Shown here: piece by piece, positions 6,466 through 48,583 of the stretch
Layout: each line of letters opens with the position of its first letter
Numbering within the stretch: the first letter of the stretch is position 1
Assembly (NCBI GenBank): GCA_038120295.1
Contig: JAYOLL010000001.1
Span: forward strand, 205,140-269,139
Source: Rhodospirillales bacterium
Lineage (GTDB): Bacteria; Pseudomonadota; Alphaproteobacteria; MPNO01; UBA2964
Direction: 5' to 3'
Length of the DNA stretch: 64,000 nt
The notes under the pieces: model-generated
What the model saw: the letters and a program-made list of their open reading frames with translations, nothing else
The model's database searches: none
What the model was told of the DNA's origin: nothing
Translations under genes and position numbers: made by a program

Positions 6466-6489
6466 CCGCACAAGCTCTGAAAACACGAC

Positions 6490-6522
6490 GGGCCGGCATC
6501 ATGCCGGCCCGTTTTCGTTTTT
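6490..6522 (+). terminator. Rho-independent terminator downstream of the fasciclin gene
   Basis: GGGCCGGCA-TCA-TGCCGGCCC hairpin followed by GTTTTCGTTTTT. Confidence 0.6.
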
Positions 6523-6634
6523 GCATATTCGACGGCAACTATGCCCGGATTCAGCCGTGAATTCGTGCGCGGGCCGGTGATCCATGTTCCTGCCAACCCC
6601 GTATCGGAAGTAGTAGCAAGAATGGAGCAGGCAT

Positions 6635-7549
6635 ATGGATTCACAAATTGATGCATCGAGGGACCGATCGGACAAGCTCAATGCTACTGCAAGCAGATTT
6701 CTGACAGCAGATGAGGAAAGACACCTGATCACCTGTTGGCAGGACGCGCGGGACAAACGCGCGCTCGACAGGATTGTTCGTGCCTTTGCTCCCCTGGTTG
6801 CACGGCACGCCCACGCATTACGGAAATACACCGATCAACGCGATGACCTGATTCAGGAAGGAAATATCGCTCTCATGGAAGCCATATCGCGCTTTGACTC
6901 TGAACGAGGGGCGAGATTCGGAACCTACGCCAGCTGGTGGGTGAAAGCGCGTATGCAGGATTACGTCTTGAGCAACCGGTCGGTCGTGCGTATTCCCCGG
7001 TCGCGCGAAAAAAAGAGCCTGTTCTTCAAGATGCGGCACCTCGAGGCAAAGCAGTTTCAGAACGGTACTGACGATCGGCAGGGAGTCGAAACTGTTTCCG
7101 CAGCACTCAATATTCCTGTCGGCGACGTCGTTCGCGTAGCAGCGCTGATGTCAGGCGATCAGGCCATGGAGGCGCCAGTTCCGGCAACCGGTATGGAGTT
7201 TGGTAGCATGCTGGCCGACCCGGCGCCCGGACCAGAAGAAACTGTTGCTGCGCGCCAAAGCATCGACGCTTGCCGCCTCTTGCTCGGCGAGGCCATGGAC
7301 GATCTATCCGACCGTGAAAGAGAGATAATCAAGGCCAGAAAACTTACGGAAGCCCCCCGGACACTGAAGGAACTGGCCGCAGATTTCGGTGTCTCGACAG
7401 AAAGGGTTCGCCAGATCGAAGGCTCAGCCCTGATCAAGCTACGCGAAGCTATAGAGACCTCATTCAGCTTTCCCGTAGATCTGTTGCCAGATTCCCCCTC
7501 CTTTGTAGCAACCGGAAGGTCCGGGACCGTCGGTCAGGCTCTTTATTAA
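6635..7549 (+). CDS. rpoH: RNA polymerase sigma-32 (RpoH-type, heat shock) factor
   Basis: 304 aa. Sigma-70 region 2 (DLIQEGNIALMEAISRFDSERGARFGTYASWWVKARMQDYVL). RpoH-box-like REKKSLFFKMRHL. Region 4 HTH (TLKELAADFGVSTERVRQIEGSALIKLR). Confidence 0.8.
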   Translation: MDSQIDASRDRSDKLNATASRFLTADEERHLITCWQDARDKRALDRIVRAFAPLVARHAHALRKYTDQRDDLIQEGNIALMEAISRFDSERGARFGTYASWWVKARMQDYVLSNRSVVRIPRSREKKSLFFKMRHLEAKQFQNGTDDRQGVETVSAALNIPVGDVVRVAALMSGDQAMEAPVPATGMEFGSMLADPAPGPEETVAARQSIDACRLLLGEAMDDLSDREREIIKARKLTEAPRTLKELAADFGVSTERVRQIEGSALIKLREAIETSFSFPVDLLPDSPSFVATGRSGTVGQALY

Positions 7550-33299: not shown

Positions 33300-33655
33300 C
33301 CTGAATTGATCTTGATCTCGCACCCGTCCGGGCCGTTGACGATGAACGAGTCGTGACCCGGCGTCTGGCGGGCGATCGGGGCGGGTTTCAGGCCGTTATC
33401 GGCGCATTCCTGCCAGGCGGAGTCGATGTCCTTTACCCTGAAATCGAACTGAAGTGGCGCGTCGGTGGCGATATTGCTCGCCCCGCCCGTTAGCTGCAGG
33501 CGCGTTTTGTCGGAAAACTCCATCACGGCGAAATTATCCCTGTCCACGTCCTGTCGTGCGCCGAGAGCTTCGAAAAATGCGATGGCGCCGGGGAGGTCGG
33601 TAACTGACAGTCGCAAATGACCGAGCGAAAGGGACAGGGGGGGCTGAGATGCCAT
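33284..33655 (-). CDS. VOC/glyoxalase family protein
   Basis: 123 aa. LGHLRLSVTDLPGAIAFFEALG ... FIVNGPDGCEIKI glyoxalase-fold pattern. Confidence 0.6.
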   Translation of the reverse strand: MASQPPLSLSLGHLRLSVTDLPGAIAFFEALGARQDVDRDNFAVMEFSDKTRLQLTGGASNIATDAPLQFDFRVKDIDSAWQECADNGLKPAPIARQTPGHDSFIVNGPDGCEIKINSGYKRA

Positions 33656-34321
33656 GGCTCGTTTCCGTCTTTGGCTTCAGGTTGCTGCTAATCCGGTCGG
33701 GGAATATTAGCGGGGAACACAGGCGTAGCAAACTCCGCTCCGTATACTCCCAGGGTTTGTCGAGGGGCACGCCTGTCGTCCAATTTACCTAAAATTCGAA
33801 CAAACGCCGGATGCCGCTTAGTATTTTGTTAACAGGGCAAACCAATAATTTCCCATGACGTTACCAGAGTCGGTCGAGTGCCGATACGAAGCGGAGGGAA
33901 CTATGTCGAGACATCTGACGTTCGAACATCATGCCGATCTCGCGGGCTGGACCGCTGAGCATGCCGGCCAGTCCAATATCGATATGCAGTGGTCCGGCGC
34001 TATCAGGGCCATCTGCTTCATCGGCTCCTGTTTTGCTTCCTGGGGGGGCGTTATCGCGGCGTTGTACGCGATCTTCTGATCGGGCGGCTTACGCGGGCCG
34101 GGCACCGTCACAGCAAGGTTTGCATACAGCGACCGGTTTTCCAGGAACACGCAGAATTCGGGCGTCAGAATCCCGGCAGGAGGTAGCCTTCGTCCATCGG
34201 AGGCTTCGTCCAGATCGCCATTTCGTTTCCGGTCGGCATGAAGCCACTGAAAAGACCTGGTCCGAGGCTCGGAATGTTTCCACCCGGGTTCTTGCCTGTT
34301 GCGCGAGCGCTGCCTTATCCT

Positions 34322-42707: not shown

Positions 42708-43313
42708 ATGACGCGGATTGCGCCGCTTAGGCGCGAGGATCATCCCGACCTCGACGAGAAGTTCTTCAGGCCCTACGAGGAATCGCGCGGCTATGTGCCG
42801 AACTCCAACCTCGTTATGGCTCGCAGACCCAAGGTGCTGGCGGCGTTCCGCGCGCTGAACGCGGCGGTGTTCGATCCTGAGAACAGCGTACCTGCCGGGT
42901 TGCTTGCGCTGGTCGGGAATATCGCGAGCCAGGCTGCAGGTTGCATGTATTGCGTCGCGCATACGGCTAACAATGCGGGTATTCACGGCGTCGATGCGGC
43001 AAAAGTCGCGGCGCTGTGGGAATATGAGACCAGCCCGCTGTTCGACGATGCCGAACGGGCGGCGCTGCGGTTCGCCCAGGCGGCAGCGTCGGTGCCCAAT
43101 ATGGTGACGGACGAGGACGTCGATGCCGTGAAGGCGCATTTCGGCGAAGACGGCGCGGTGGAAATCCTGACGGTGGTGTCCTGGTACGGATTTCTCAATC
43201 GCTGGAACGACAGCCTCGCGACGGACCTGGAAGAGGTCGCCTTTGATAAGGCGTCGGATACGCTGGCTTCGACCGGCTGGGATGCCGGCAAGCATCGCCC
43301 GCCGACGCGTTAG
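42708..43313 (+). CDS. Carboxymuconolactone decarboxylase (AhpD-like) family protein
   Basis: 201 aa. CMYCVAHT (CxxC/H AhpD-fold motif). Confidence 0.75.
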   Translation: MTRIAPLRREDHPDLDEKFFRPYEESRGYVPNSNLVMARRPKVLAAFRALNAAVFDPENSVPAGLLALVGNIASQAAGCMYCVAHTANNAGIHGVDAAKVAALWEYETSPLFDDAERAALRFAQAAASVPNMVTDEDVDAVKAHFGEDGAVEILTVVSWYGFLNRWNDSLATDLEEVAFDKASDTLASTGWDAGKHRPPTR

Positions 43314-44343: not shown

Positions 44344-44685
44344 ATCATGCCTTCCAAGGAAGATCCCGGACGCGGTTATCATGATATTGGCGGACTCGAT
44401 GCCGGGTCCATCCCGCTTGAAACGACGGACATGAAGCCGTGGGAGAAGCTGTCGACCGCTATCAGCAATGCTCTTGGCGCGGGGGGACGGGGTTATTACG
44501 TCACGGACGAATCAAGGCGCGCGCGCGAACAGATGGGCGATCCACCCTATAGCGATCTTGGATATTTCGAACGCGCAACAGAATCGATGAAGATGGTGCT
44601 GATCGAGAAGGGACTGTTTTCATCCGAAGAGCTCGAATCTCGGATGAAGGAAATCGAACAGCGTATGGCAGAGGCGCGCAAATGA
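44344..44685 (+). CDS. Nitrile hydratase beta subunit, N-terminal half (SCNase-beta/ToyK-like split subunit)
   Basis: 113 aa. HDIGGLDAGSIP matches the NHase-beta N-terminal HDLGG motif. Its stop overlaps the next ATG (ATGA). Confidence 0.7.
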   Translation: MMPSKEDPGRGYHDIGGLDAGSIPLETTDMKPWEKLSTAISNALGAGGRGYYVTDESRRAREQMGDPPYSDLGYFERATESMKMVLIEKGLFSSEELESRMKEIEQRMAEARK

Positions 44686-44966
44686 GTGCGCTCTATCAGG
44701 CTGGCGATCGGGTGAGGGTCATTGCGACCAACCCGCCCGGTCATCGAAGGACGCCATACTATATTCGCGGCAAGGTGGGCGAAGTCGAACGGGTGTGCGG
44801 CGCGCATCCGAATCCGGAGGAACTCGCTTACGGATTCGATGGCCTGCCGGCGAAGATGCTCTATCGTGTCCGGTTCAAACAGAAAGAGGTCTGGGATGCC
44901 TATTCGGGACCCGAGACCGATACGGTCGATGTCGACATCTACGAACACTGGCTTCGTCCAGCGTAA
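44682..44966 (+). CDS. Nitrile hydratase beta subunit, C-terminal half (SCNase-alpha/ToyL-like split subunit)
   Basis: 94 aa. GDRVRVIATNPPGHRRTPYYIRGKVGEVERV...YRVRF...VDVDIYEHWLRPA matches the NHase-beta C-terminal barrel. Confidence 0.7.
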   Translation: MSALYQAGDRVRVIATNPPGHRRTPYYIRGKVGEVERVCGAHPNPEELAYGFDGLPAKMLYRVRFKQKEVWDAYSGPETDTVDVDIYEHWLRPA

Positions 44967-44983: not shown

Positions 44984-45682
44984 ATGGCTGCTGACGAACG
45001 CGGACATCAACACGACCATGGTCATGATCACGATCATGACCACGACCACGAACATCCGCACGATCATGACCGGACATTCCAGCCCGATATCGAAGACGAG
45101 CCGCCCGGTCGCTACGAACTGATGACCTATGCGATCCGCGAACTGCTGATCGAGAAGGGTAATCTGACCGGCGAAGAAATCCGCAAGGCCCAGGAAAAGA
45201 TCGATAGCTGGGAAGTATCCCAGGGCGCCCGGATCGTTGCTCGCGCCTGGACCGACCCGGATTACAGGAGCCGCTTGCTGGAGGATGGCAATTCCGCGAT
45301 GGCGGAGTTCGGCATCGAACCCGGCGGAGCCAAGATGACGGTGGTCGAAAACACCGACAAGGTTCAGAACGTCATCGTCTGTACGCTGTGCTCCTGCTAT
45401 CCGCGTGCAGTTCTCGGCCTGCCGCCGGACTGGTACCGTTCGAAAAGCTATCGCTCTCGCGTCGTCGTCGAGCCACGCGAGGTGCTGAAAGAGTTCGGCA
45501 CCGAGGTTCCCGATGACATGGCGGTCAGGGTTCACGACAGCCTGGCGGATCTGCGCTATCTGGTGCTGCCGCGACGGCCGGAAGGAACGGAAGGCTGGAG
45601 CGAGGAACAGCTCGCCTCCATCGTAACGCGCGATACCATGGTCGGCGTTGCCAACCCCGTTGCGGACGCCTCCAAGAGCTGA
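44984..45682 (+). CDS. Nitrile hydratase alpha subunit, Co-type, with an N-terminal poly-His/Asp extension
   Basis: 232 aa. Metal site VIVCTLCSCYPRAVLGLPPDWYRSKSYRSR (the Thr/Tyr variant of cobalt enzymes). Residues 8-29 read HQHDHGHDHDHDHDHEHPHDHD. GGAGA RBS upstream. Confidence 0.85.
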   Translation: MAADERGHQHDHGHDHDHDHDHEHPHDHDRTFQPDIEDEPPGRYELMTYAIRELLIEKGNLTGEEIRKAQEKIDSWEVSQGARIVARAWTDPDYRSRLLEDGNSAMAEFGIEPGGAKMTVVENTDKVQNVIVCTLCSCYPRAVLGLPPDWYRSKSYRSRVVVEPREVLKEFGTEVPDDMAVRVHDSLADLRYLVLPRRPEGTEGWSEEQLASIVTRDTMVGVANPVADASKS

Positions 45683-45694
45683 TCGGTTCCACCT

Positions 45695-48034
45695 ATGCCC
45701 GACGATCTGATCGGCGTCTCGCGTCGCCGGCTTGAAGATTACGACCTCCTGACCGGCAATGCGTCCTTCGTCGACGATCTGCGGCTCGACGGCATGCTGC
45801 AGGCAGCCTTTGTGCGCAGCGCCCATGCTCACGCGACTATAGGAACCGTCGATCTGTCGGCTGCGCGCGCCGCGCCAGGCGTTGTCGCCGCATACGCGAT
45901 CGACGATCTGGCTGACGTGCTGACACAGGACCGCATTCCCGAAGGGTTTCCCAAGCCGGGTCTGCGCAATGAGGTCGGTCCATACGTTCTGGCGCGTGAC
46001 GAGGTCTGTTATGTCGGCGAACCCATTGCAGTCGTCATCGCCGACACACGGTACCGGGCGGAGGACGCGGCGCAGCTTGTCGAAGTCGAGTACGACCCTC
46101 TGCCGGCAGTCGGAGACCCCCGCGACTCTGCGGCAGACGGCGCTTCGGTCGTCAACAGGCGTAGCGGCGAGAACACCGTCGGGCGCTACGCGCTGGAGAC
46201 CGGCGATGTCGATGCGGCCTTCAACACCGCCGCTCATGTCGTAAAGGCGAAGCTGCGCCAGCATCGCGGGTGTTCGCTGCCGATGGAATGCCGGGGCGTT
46301 GCGGTACGCTACGATCCACGCCGCCGCAAGCTTACGCTCTGGAGTTCCAACCAGGCGCCGCATTCGCACAAGAGCATCATCGTTTCCCTGTTCGGGCTTT
46401 CGGAAGGCGATGTGCGGGTCATCGTACCGTCGGTCGGCGGCGGGTTCGGGCCCAAGCTGCTGTTCTACCCTGAGGATGCCTCCGTGACCGCTGCGGCGAT
46501 CAAGCTCGGCCGTCCGGTAAAGTGGATCGAGGATCGGCGCGAACATCTGATGTGCACGACCCAGGAACGCGACCAGTTCTGGGACGTCGAAATGGCTGCT
46601 GATACGGAAGGTCGCGTGGTCGGATTGCGCGGCACGCTCTGGCATGACCAGGGCGCCTACACGGCTCGCGGCACCAACATTCCGTTTTCTTCAGCCACCA
46701 CCATTCTCGGTCCCTATATCATCCCGACCTACCGGATGAATGTGGTGATCGCGCATACCAACAAGGTTCCGGCAACATCGATGCGGGGCGCGGGCCATCC
46801 CCAGGGCTGTTTCACGATGGAGCGGCTGCTCGACCGGCTGGCCGTGGCGACCGGGATCGACCGGGCGGAAATCCGCGTGCGCAACATGATCCGGCCCGAG
46901 CAGATGCCTTACGAACATCCGCTTCGTACGCAGGCGGGACAGCGGATCATCTATGACAGCGGCGACTATGCGAAATGCCAGGCGGACCTGCTGGACGCGA
47001 TGGATTACGACGGGTTCGCGGCGCGTCAGCGGGCGGCGCGGACCGAGGGCCGTTATCTGGGCATTGGCATCGCCAACTATGTGAAGCCGACGGGGCGGGG
47101 TCCGTTCGAAACCGGGCTGGTGCGCATCGGCACCTCGGGCAAGGTGATGGTCTATAGCGGCGGCGTCGCGATGGGGCAGGGGTTCCATACCGCCATGGCC
47201 ACCATCGCGGCCGAACAGCTGGGCGTCAGTCCCGACGATGTCTCCGTTGTGGCGGGGGATACTGACGGGGTGCCGCGCGGCATAGGCGGGTTCGCCAGCC
47301 GGCTGACGGTCTGCGCCGGTTCGTCGGTTCACCTCGCGTCGGTAAAGCTGCGCGAAAAAGTCCTGGCGATCGCGGCCAACCTGCTGGAAGCCTCGGCCGA
47401 GGACCTGGAACTGATCGATGGCAAGGTGTTCATCAAGGGGGTGCCGGGGATCGAGGTGTCGTTCAGCCAGGTCGCGCAGGCGGTGGCGGGGATGCCGGGA
47501 GTCTCTCTGCCCGAGGGGATGTCCCCCGGACTTGAGGCAGACGCGAGTTTTCAGCCGGAGAACGTGGTCTACGCCAATGGCGCGCATGCGGCGGAGGTGG
47601 AAATCGACCCCGACACCGGGCGCATTCGCCTGCTGCGTTACGTGGTCGTGCATGACAGCGGCCGGCTCATAAACCCGATGATCGTCGACGGTCAGGTGCA
47701 GGGCGGCGTCGCCAACGGACTCGGCAATGCCTTGTTCGAGGAAATGATGTTCGACGACGACGCGATGCCGCTCTCGACCAACCTGGCCGAGTATCTGGCG
47801 CCCACCGCGCCGGAACTGCCGAATTTCGAGATCATCCATCAGGTCTCGCCGACCGACCGAAACCCCATCGGCGTCAAGGGCGTCGGCGAATGCGGCGTTA
47901 TGTCCGCCGCCCCGTCCGTCCTGTCGGCTATTGAGAACGCGCTGGACGAATTCGGCGTGACCCTGGACTCCCATCCGGTTACGCCCATGATGCTCGTCGA
48001 AAAGATCAATGAACACCGCAACAGGGAGAAGTAG
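45695..48034 (+). CDS. Xanthine dehydrogenase/aldehyde oxidase-family molybdopterin-binding large subunit (orphan, second copy)
   Basis: 779 aa. MPDDLIGVSRRRLEDYDLLTGNASFVDDL N-terminus, GGGFG, MoCo-domain motifs. 12 nt after the NHase alpha stop. Confidence 0.85.
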   Translation: MPDDLIGVSRRRLEDYDLLTGNASFVDDLRLDGMLQAAFVRSAHAHATIGTVDLSAARAAPGVVAAYAIDDLADVLTQDRIPEGFPKPGLRNEVGPYVLARDEVCYVGEPIAVVIADTRYRAEDAAQLVEVEYDPLPAVGDPRDSAADGASVVNRRSGENTVGRYALETGDVDAAFNTAAHVVKAKLRQHRGCSLPMECRGVAVRYDPRRRKLTLWSSNQAPHSHKSIIVSLFGLSEGDVRVIVPSVGGGFGPKLLFYPEDASVTAAAIKLGRPVKWIEDRREHLMCTTQERDQFWDVEMAADTEGRVVGLRGTLWHDQGAYTARGTNIPFSSATTILGPYIIPTYRMNVVIAHTNKVPATSMRGAGHPQGCFTMERLLDRLAVATGIDRAEIRVRNMIRPEQMPYEHPLRTQAGQRIIYDSGDYAKCQADLLDAMDYDGFAARQRAARTEGRYLGIGIANYVKPTGRGPFETGLVRIGTSGKVMVYSGGVAMGQGFHTAMATIAAEQLGVSPDDVSVVAGDTDGVPRGIGGFASRLTVCAGSSVHLASVKLREKVLAIAANLLEASAEDLELIDGKVFIKGVPGIEVSFSQVAQAVAGMPGVSLPEGMSPGLEADASFQPENVVYANGAHAAEVEIDPDTGRIRLLRYVVVHDSGRLINPMIVDGQVQGGVANGLGNALFEEMMFDDDAMPLSTNLAEYLAPTAPELPNFEIIHQVSPTDRNPIGVKGVGECGVMSAAPSVLSAIENALDEFGVTLDSHPVTPMMLVEKINEHRNREK

Positions 48035-48583
48035 ATGCCGCGGATCGACCCCATCGATATGGACAACCTGACAGAGGAACAGAAGGCCGTCGCCGCCAAG
48101 ATTGTTTCCGGGCCGCGCGGCGAAGTTCGCGGACCGTTCCGTGTGCTGATGCACAGCCCCGAACTGGCCGATGCGGTTCAGACCATGGGAGCCTATGTGC
48201 GGTTTAATGCGGAACTGCCCTGGAAGCTGCGCGAACTGGCGATTCTCGTAACAGCGCGTCACTGGAACTGCTCCTACGAGTGGTTTGCGCACGAAAAGGA
48301 GGCTCAGAAGGCCGAGCTGGACCAGGGCATTATTGATGCCATCCGAATTCGCGAGAAGCCGAACTTCACTGAGGAAGCGGAAGAGGAAATCTGGAATTTC
48401 TGCACCGAGTACTACGCCAACACCAAGGTTAGCGACGCGACCTTCCAGAAGATCATCGACCGGCACGGCAAACGGGGCGCGGTCGACCTCGCCGGGCTGC
48501 TCGGCCATTACAATGCCATTGCGGCGACGCTGAATATCTTCCAGGTGGAAGTGCCGGACGGATCGTCGCCTTTGCCCGATTAA
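48035..48583 (+). CDS. Carboxymuconolactone decarboxylase-family protein
   Basis: 182 aa. Its ATG abuts the stop of the Mo-hydroxylase gene. HWNCSYEWFAHE AhpD-like helix motif. Confidence 0.7.
   Translation: MPRIDPIDMDNLTEEQKAVAAKIVSGPRGEVRGPFRVLMHSPELADAVQTMGAYVRFNAELPWKLRELAILVTARHWNCSYEWFAHEKEAQKAELDQGIIDAIRIREKPNFTEEAEEEIWNFCTEYYANTKVSDATFQKIIDRHGKRGAVDLAGLLGHYNAIAATLNIFQVEVPDGSSPLPD

Follow-up and report, generated by a model that had tools for sequence, protein, structure and literature searches.

The 64,000 nucleotides of Rhodospirillales DNA analysed here (assembly GCA_038120295.1, contig JAYOLL010000001.1, positions 205,140 to 269,139; hereafter the window) contain a gene for the alpha subunit of a cobalt-type enzyme of the nitrile hydratase (NHase) family, the product of which starts with a tail rich in His and Asp. 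The delivery of cobalt to the buried metal site of NHases is incompletely understood and matters for their industrial expression. In an earlier note on this DNA the tail and the lack of an activator gene had been taken together as an unusual, self-contained maturation arrangement. With moderate confidence, we favour a different reading: the enzyme is a three-subunit cobalt-type enzyme, the tail is an auxiliary Co(II) antenna and not a substitute for the activator, and the activator is absent due to a split beta subunit, the free N-terminal half of which (betaN) would act as chaperone. This reading is carried by a comparison of loci in which the absence of the activator appears to track the split of the beta subunit and not the tail.

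Co-occurrence of tails, accessory genes and split beta subunits

For this comparison 45 loci, drawn from the matches listed, were annotated with home-built profiles for alpha, betaN and the C-terminal half of beta (betaC). The loci were retrieved partly by the pattern HDHDHDHD and are therefore enriched in tails, so that they show co-occurrence and give no unbiased frequencies. Among the loci listed, at least 25 encode an intact beta subunit and an extra open reading frame (ORF) for betaN only, and at least 21 of these have a His-rich alpha tail, with no fewer than 4 His directly ahead of the alpha domain. Tails equally long adjoin accessory genes in Bradyrhizobium, Variovorax, Limnohabitans, Mesorhizobium and other loci, with 7-17 His in 40 residues (17 in a Mesorhizobium metagenome-assembled genome (MAG), L033; 16 in Variovorax rhizosphaerae; 14 in Limnohabitans). 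All five extra ORFs tested against NCBIfam were accessory proteins of TIGR03889 (85-103 bits, cut-off 46). A further betaN-like ORF was found in none of the 11 distinct split-beta loci (one betaN and one betaC gene) among those listed.

The earlier proposal that a tail plus a missing activator amounts to self-contained maturation fails this co-occurrence test. A tail that serves as a built-in module for capturing and delivering cobalt in place of the activator is considered unlikely. Such a replacement would agree with the lack of an activator gene in the window and in its syntenic relatives, with a tail composition typical of metal-binding tracts, with the universal presence of the tail and the invariance of its HxHxHxH core in the activator-less clade, and with the precedent of UreG, which gains a His stretch in genomes without UreE (PMC2770081). 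It is opposed by the tails of 7-17 His that adjoin bona fide TIGR03889 genes and by the split beta that accompanies activator absence in all 11 distinct loci. The crystallised Co-type NHase of PDB 3QZ5/3QXE, which we take to be the enzyme of Pseudomonas putida NRRL-18668, also has a His-rich N-terminus. The P. putida enzyme needs the activator P14K (PMC3511329). The gamma subunit of thiocyanate hydrolase (SCNase) is likewise tailed, yet functional expression of SCNase is promoted by the activator P15K, according to the passage of PMC3511329 that cites Kataoka 2006. Finally, maturation of a three-subunit enzyme without an activator has already been explained without a tail (PMC7329996). Of the module proposed earlier, a metal-binding tail remains plausible, and it is the replacement of the activator against which the comparative evidence speaks.

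A locus from a Dehalococcoidia MAG (L020, 6492-8648) carries three tandem betaN-like genes, with betaC and then a His-tailed alpha behind them. Each of the three fits the beta model better than the accessory one, and they may be intermediates between structural betaN and accessory protein.

The alpha subunit gene and its start

The alpha gene is a 232-codon ORF with an ATG at position 44984, and its product begins MAADERGHQHDHGHDHDHDHDHEHPHDHDRTFQPDIEDEPPGRYELMTYAIRELLIEKG. Residues 45-223 match the Pfam family NHase_alpha (PF02979, E = 9.5e-79, 263.5 bits, cut-off 27.2), the NHase alpha model TIGR01323 is passed barely (250.9 bits, cut-off 249.85), and the nearest relatives in PDB are alpha chains of Co-type NHases. 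Residues 132-141 read VCTLCSCYPR. Thr in the C-T-L-C-S-C motif denotes Co-type and Ser Fe-type enzymes, and the motif in the window is accordingly assigned to the predicted cobalt type. The Arg after CSCYP is found in all 120 of 120 clade members.

Translation initiation past the tail, considered in the earlier note as the alternative to a translated tail, was ruled out. The sole other in-frame start among the first 60 codons is codon 47, which falls within the conserved first helix, and the tail is conserved as protein: a His/Asp-rich N-terminus is present in 120 of the 120 nearest homologues (71-100% identity), those named being marine Rhodospirillaceae/Alphaproteobacteria MAGs by annotation. 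Because there is no other plausible start, because the conservation is at the protein level and because the changes are mostly synonymous, we conclude that the tail is translated.

Composition, conservation and repeat structure of the tail

The tract HQHDHGHDHDHDHDHEHPHDHD was found at the N-terminus of alpha as described earlier, with coordinates, residues 8-29 and reading frame all in agreement. The description as a fused tail does not hold, the tail being an N-terminal extension of the same gene and not a fused foreign domain. The tract comprises 11 His and 8 Asp or Glu, and the other 203 alpha residues include a single His; with His making up 2.15% of the residues encoded by neighbouring genes, at least 11 His in 22 residues would arise with a probability of 2.5e-13. 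From H8 to H28, His alternates with Asp, Glu, Gly, Gln or Pro in a tract of the HxHxHxH type, and the metal-binding-type composition claimed for the tail was thereby confirmed. AlphaFold2 assigns residues 1-37 a predicted local distance difference test score (pLDDT) under 50 and lets the first helix of the alpha subunit begin at residue 43, so that the tail is predicted to be disordered.

An alignment of 34 clade members gave the tail consensus HxHxHDHDRTFQPDIED, with H22, H26 and H28 invariant, H24, Q33 and P34 conserved to at least 90%, and a stretch of differing length N-terminal to this core. In comparison with two relatives, the 15-codon core shows 9 synonymous and 3 non-synonymous substitutions, and 6 and 3, respectively; the conserved segment is under purifying selection. 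At the DNA level, positions 45011-45071 form an imperfect tandem repeat of 6/12/30 nt, in which CAT and CAC as well as GAT and GAC codons are mixed. Proteins with at least 90% identity to the window alpha (P0511-P0524, 223-234 amino acids (aa)) differ in how many HD units they carry, with the EHPHDHDRTFQPDIED core constant, and the tract is thus polymorphic in length at strain level. From the slippage-type length variation and the constant core it follows that the tail has two parts, a slippage-prone (HD)n stretch and a fixed core.

The tract could in principle be a neutral low-complexity product of slippage, tolerated at a disordered, solvent-exposed N-terminus, as the imperfect tandem repeat, the differing number of HD units among nearly identical proteins and across the clade, the predicted disorder and the existence of whole clades without the tract would allow. 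We regard this as improbable, given the invariance of H22, H26 and H28, the conservation of the HDHDRTFQPDIED core with mostly synonymous change, and the recurrence of His tracts at the same position in bacteria, in three fusion architectures and in eukaryotes (PMC3323583). The mixed codons, too, argue for selection at the level of the peptide rather than of the DNA repeat.

Occurrence of the tail in the family

The spread of the tail was assessed with the 150 best representatives of 50%-identity clusters from 1.8 billion proteins, 111 of which had a complete alpha N-terminus, and a tail was counted as His-rich when at least 4 of the 45 residues preceding the alpha domain were His. Such tails were present in 70 of the 111 representatives (about 63%, a figure biased upwards by ranking the cluster list with the tail in the query), namely in 19 of 35 stand-alone alphas and in 51 of 76 fusions. 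Three fusion architectures were distinguished, betaN-His-alpha (about 320 aa), beta-His-alpha (450-530 aa, eukaryotic type) and His-alpha-betaN, and the His tract abuts the alpha domain in all three. In opisthokont NHases a His-rich stretch lies between the beta and alpha domains (Marron et al., PMC3323583).

The earlier statement that canonical alpha subunits start directly at the helix is correct for two clades. Of the 120 proteins closest to an Fe-type alpha, 4 had at least 4 His, scattered and in no case repeat-like, and of the 120 closest to the P. thermophila Co-type alpha, 1 had a tail. Elsewhere the statement does not apply, the tail being widespread; the 'canonical' alpha of the earlier note fits the best-studied actinobacterial enzymes, not the whole family. 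The alignment check suggested there showed the extension to be common rather than rare, and with tails in all of the nearest homologues, in the majority of the representatives (subject to the bias given above), in SCNase gamma and in 3QZ5/3QXE, the arrangement is not unusual: the tail is a known, little-discussed family feature. As far as can be judged from the sequences, it is a widespread accessory feature, inherited within a large branch of the family to which many proteobacterial Co-type NHases, SCNase gamma and eukaryotic beta-alpha fusions belong.

For the eukaryotic linker a structural role was suggested by Marron et al. (PMC3323583). A mainly structural tail, acting as a spacer or charged arm that places the alpha helix on beta or mediates oligomer contacts, would be in line with its position directly before the alpha N-terminal arm, with the use of the tract as beta-alpha linker in fusion proteins (PMC3323583) and with the conserved RTFQPDIED after the His core. 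This explanation is nevertheless very improbable; it leaves the strict His/Asp composition and the HxHxHxH invariance unexplained, stand-alone alphas need no linker, and the region is predicted to be disordered.

Several tailed proteins were observed in addition. A Roseomonas MAG (L029, 7542-8618) and proteins P0122-P0128 and P0150 provide single-polypeptide betaN-His-alpha fusions of about 320 aa and one His-alpha-betaN fusion of 351 aa; a betaC-like ORF was not detected in the L029 locus. Protein P0263 (1062 aa), probably eukaryotic, combines RCC1/WD40-like repeats, beta, the His-rich tract HHHHHHHDDHEH and the alpha domain. In four loci from Nocardia, Mycolicibacterium and an Actinomycetota MAG (L021, L025, L027 and L044) the alphas start ..HDHDHDHDRT(V/A)xPMVDE(I/V)T, closely like the start of SCNase gamma HDHDHKPAPMVEEVS, and each locus has an intact beta gene and a betaN-like ORF downstream; that of L044, the one tested of these four loci, scored below TIGR03889.

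Operon structure and gene neighbourhood

The features of the NHase region are compiled in Table 1. The betaN stop codon overlaps the betaC start codon (ATGA, 44682-44685), the 112-aa betaN is called as a gene in loci L001-L004 also, and the part of PDB 3QYG chain B to which betaC aligns is residues 129-219. With the order betaN-betaC-alpha, separate beta halves and no accessory gene in the window, the three genes form a predicted three-cistron operon for a three-subunit cobalt-type enzyme of the NHase family. The operon is not a classical one with an accessory gene, as the downstream neighbour of alpha, 12 nt past its stop codon and in the slot of the activator gene in the classical operon, is a gene for a CoxL-like protein.

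Table 1. Positions of the features of the NHase region within the window.
Feature	Position	Strand	Basis
betaN gene, N-terminal half of NHase beta, separate 112-aa protein	44347..44685	+	Pfam NHase_beta_N, E = 1.4e-14
betaC gene, C-terminal half of NHase beta, separate 94-aa protein	44682..44966	+	Pfam NHase_beta_C, E = 2e-22
Shine-Dalgarno sequence GAGGAG, 7 nt before the alpha start codon	44971..44976	+	read from sequence
Alpha subunit gene, 232 aa, Co-type NHase family	44984..45682	+	Pfam NHase_alpha, TIGR01323, nearest PDB chains
Predicted disordered N-terminal extension, residues 1-37	44984..45094	+	AlphaFold2 pLDDT < 50
His/Asp tract, residues 8-29; (HD)n of variable length, then fixed core	45005..45070	+	translation, repeat analysis
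Conserved tail core H22-x-H24-x-H26-x-H28-D-R-T-F-Q-P-D-I-E-D	45047..45097	+	34-member alignment, mostly synonymous substitutions
Metal-binding motif CTLCSC (C133-C138), then Y-P-R141	45380..45406	+	read from sequence
CoxL-like molybdopterin hydroxylase large-subunit gene	45695..48034	+	Pfam Ald_Xan_dh_C, MoCoBD_1, MoCoBD_2

The absence of an activator gene, as stated in the earlier note, was borne out in the window and in the syntenic relatives. No betaN paralogue was found in the window in a six-frame, single-sequence phmmer search with betaN, and no other betaN-like or accessory-like ORF with an iterated betaN hidden Markov model (HMM), which detects accessory proteins in other loci; in the syntenic relatives no accessory gene was present within 10 kb. 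The betaN of the window itself gave no match to the accessory model TIGR03889 at E <= 0.01. An alpha-like match at 33604-33789 (E = 0.008) has an unrelated translation and was dismissed as chance.

The betaN HMM also matches the N-terminal helix of alpha (window 45080-45215, residues about 33-78, E = 5.6e-10). This helix, YELMTYAIRELLIEKGNLTGEEIRKAQEKID, looks like the one at the C-terminal end of betaN, FERATESMKMVLIEKGLFSSEELESRMKEIE (shared LIEKG..T.EE), and the likeness may be real or an artefact of betaN-alpha fusion proteins in the profile.

The block of an esterase gene (minus strand), betaN, betaC, alpha, the CoxL-like gene and a gene of the carboxymuconolactone-decarboxylase/AhpD-like (CMD) family, followed by isochorismatase-like and deacetylase-like genes, is kept in the syntenic relatives L005 and L006, with alpha identities of 72% and 77%. 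The CoxL-like gene falls under the cut-off of every specific NCBIfam model (best CODH group 5, 740 against 950 bits), and no genes for FAD or 2Fe-2S partner subunits lie within 10 kb of it. Two CMD family genes flank the NHase block, at 42708-43313 (+) and at 48035-48583 (+), the latter beginning right after the CoxL-like stop codon. Both are kept in relatives, along with a glutathione S-transferase (GST) gene, a 329-aa 'phosphonate-bd'-like protein and the esterase, isochorismatase-like and deacetylase-like genes, and the neighbourhood looks like an uncharacterised catabolic cluster. In L006 (GCA_002306905.1) the cobalt transporter genes cbtB/cbtA are located at 6478-7405, 3 kb upstream of the NHase genes; they are not at the equivalent place in the window.

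Comparison with known systems

By its architecture, as predicted from the genes, the window enzyme belongs with the three-subunit, activator-less NHases. ScNHase (AnhD-AnhE-AnhA) of Streptomyces canus has no activator gene anywhere in the genome and takes up Co directly under reducing conditions, with the betaN half AnhD acting as metallochaperone and as self-subunit-swapping chaperone (PMC7329996). ToyJ of the three-subunit toyocamycin enzyme matures alone (PMC7329996). ScNHase and ToyJKL (Streptomyces) share with the window the split beta, the order betaN-betaC-alpha, the lack of an activator gene and the cobalt type (PMC7329996); they are actinobacterial and have different neighbour genes, whereas the relatives of the window are marine alphaproteobacterial MAGs.

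SCNase of Thiobacillus thioparus is also a cobalt enzyme. Its gamma subunit (PDB 2DD4 chain C) has an N-terminal (DH)n tail, ..DHDHDHDHDHDHKPAPMVEEVSDFEILEMAVRELAIEKG, directly before the first helix, as in the window alpha, and a CTLCSCYPR site the R136 of which aligns with R141 of the window. The partner beta subunit is split as well, 2DD4 chains B and A matching betaN and betaC, respectively. These shared features, the split beta of a three-subunit enzyme and the Arg after CSCYP, are insufficient for membership: the window alpha reaches 219.5 bits on TIGR03887 against a cut-off of 291.45 and passes the NHase alpha model instead, and betaN and betaC are nearer to NHase beta than to SCNase beta/alpha. 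With TIGR03887 well under its cut-off and the beta halves nearer to NHase beta, membership among the true thiocyanate hydrolases was rejected. SCNase moreover has P15K, by the account cited in PMC3511329, whereas no activator was found in the 64 kb of the window.

The two-subunit proteobacterial Co-type NHases (3QZ5/3QXE type; Bradyrhizobium, Variovorax and Mesorhizobium loci L016, L023 and L033) have CTLCSC as in the window. The alpha chain 3QZ5_A shares a His/Asp-rich N-terminus, MGQSHTHDHHHD, with the window alpha, the crystallised chain beginning MGQSHTHDHHHDGYQ. Unlike the window, these enzymes have a full-length beta and a TIGR03889 accessory gene, a Trp instead of Arg after CSCYP, and mostly the gene order alpha-beta-accessory instead of betaN-betaC-alpha.

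In the eukaryotic beta-alpha fusion NHases of Monosiga brevicollis and other opisthokonts, a His-rich stretch is located just before the alpha domain (PMC3323583), as in the window, and both are Co-type enzymes with CTLCSC. Metagenomic beta-His-alpha fusions are many among the nearest 50%-identity clusters of the window alpha. No dedicated activator has been reported for the eukaryotic enzyme (PMC7329996, discussion). It is one fused polypeptide with the tract as internal linker, whereas the window encodes three proteins and the tract is at a free N-terminus.

In G3E metallochaperones, stretches of His are interpreted as elements that deliver metal, and the HxHxHxH-type tails of HypB, UreE, UreG, CooJ and COG0523 proteins, which the window tract resembles, as signs that metal is stored or delivered (PMC2770081). 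Those tails are carried by dedicated chaperones or GTPases, in contrast to the window tract on a client enzyme subunit, and beyond composition there is no homology.

Proposed role of the tail

For the reading favoured here, that of an auxiliary Co(II) antenna on a three-subunit enzyme, a low-affinity Co(II)-capturing arm is the most likely role of the tail. The disordered arm would bind Co(II) weakly and reversibly via its alternating His and Asp side chains, and the bound Co(II) would raise the local metal concentration beside the CTLCSC site, with capture taking place while alpha is free or in a maturation intermediate of the alpha-(betaN)2 type. The (HD)n tract would expand and contract by repeat slippage and the HxHxHxH-DRTFQPDIED core would stay fixed. 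The free betaN probably doubles as self-subunit-swapping and metal chaperone, by analogy with AnhD, a role suggested because betaN shares its fold family with the accessory proteins and because AnhD provides a precedent. The activator would be dispensable because beta is split to give a free betaN, not because of the tail.

For the activator-less split-beta marine clade a stronger role can be imagined, in which the invariant HxHxHxH core is the actual cis Co(II) donor to CTLCSC and permits self-maturation at the very low cobalt levels of seawater, and (HD)n tunes the capture capacity between strains. This we hold to be doubtful.

Several points weigh against the favoured reading. Two clades of fully functional enzymes have no tail, so that the tail is dispensable in principle; its link to Co-type clades could result from shared ancestry rather than from function. 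Deletion of the (His)17 stretch of the Monosiga enzyme reportedly left the full cobalt content and about half of the activity, so that any role of the tail may be modest, and to our knowledge tail-deletion data exist only for the eukaryotic enzyme. Furthermore, the chaperone role of betaN is carried over to this clade from a single studied enzyme, cobalt binding by the tail and an effect on maturation are inferred from sequence, and the tail-enriched retrieval of the loci has to be counted here as well.

Implications for the NHase family

The question of the tail was not opened here first, since crystallised relatives and eukaryotic enzymes carry it and activators co-exist with it. If the tail should prove to be a cis-acting cobalt antenna, transplanting it could improve activator-free expression. 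A by-product of the analysis is the conserved linkage of the NHase genes to an orphan CoxL-like gene. Of more use for comparison is the pairing of activator absence with a split beta, a pattern which supports the idea, so far drawn from one enzyme, that the free betaN is the accessory protein in an ancestral or alternative form.

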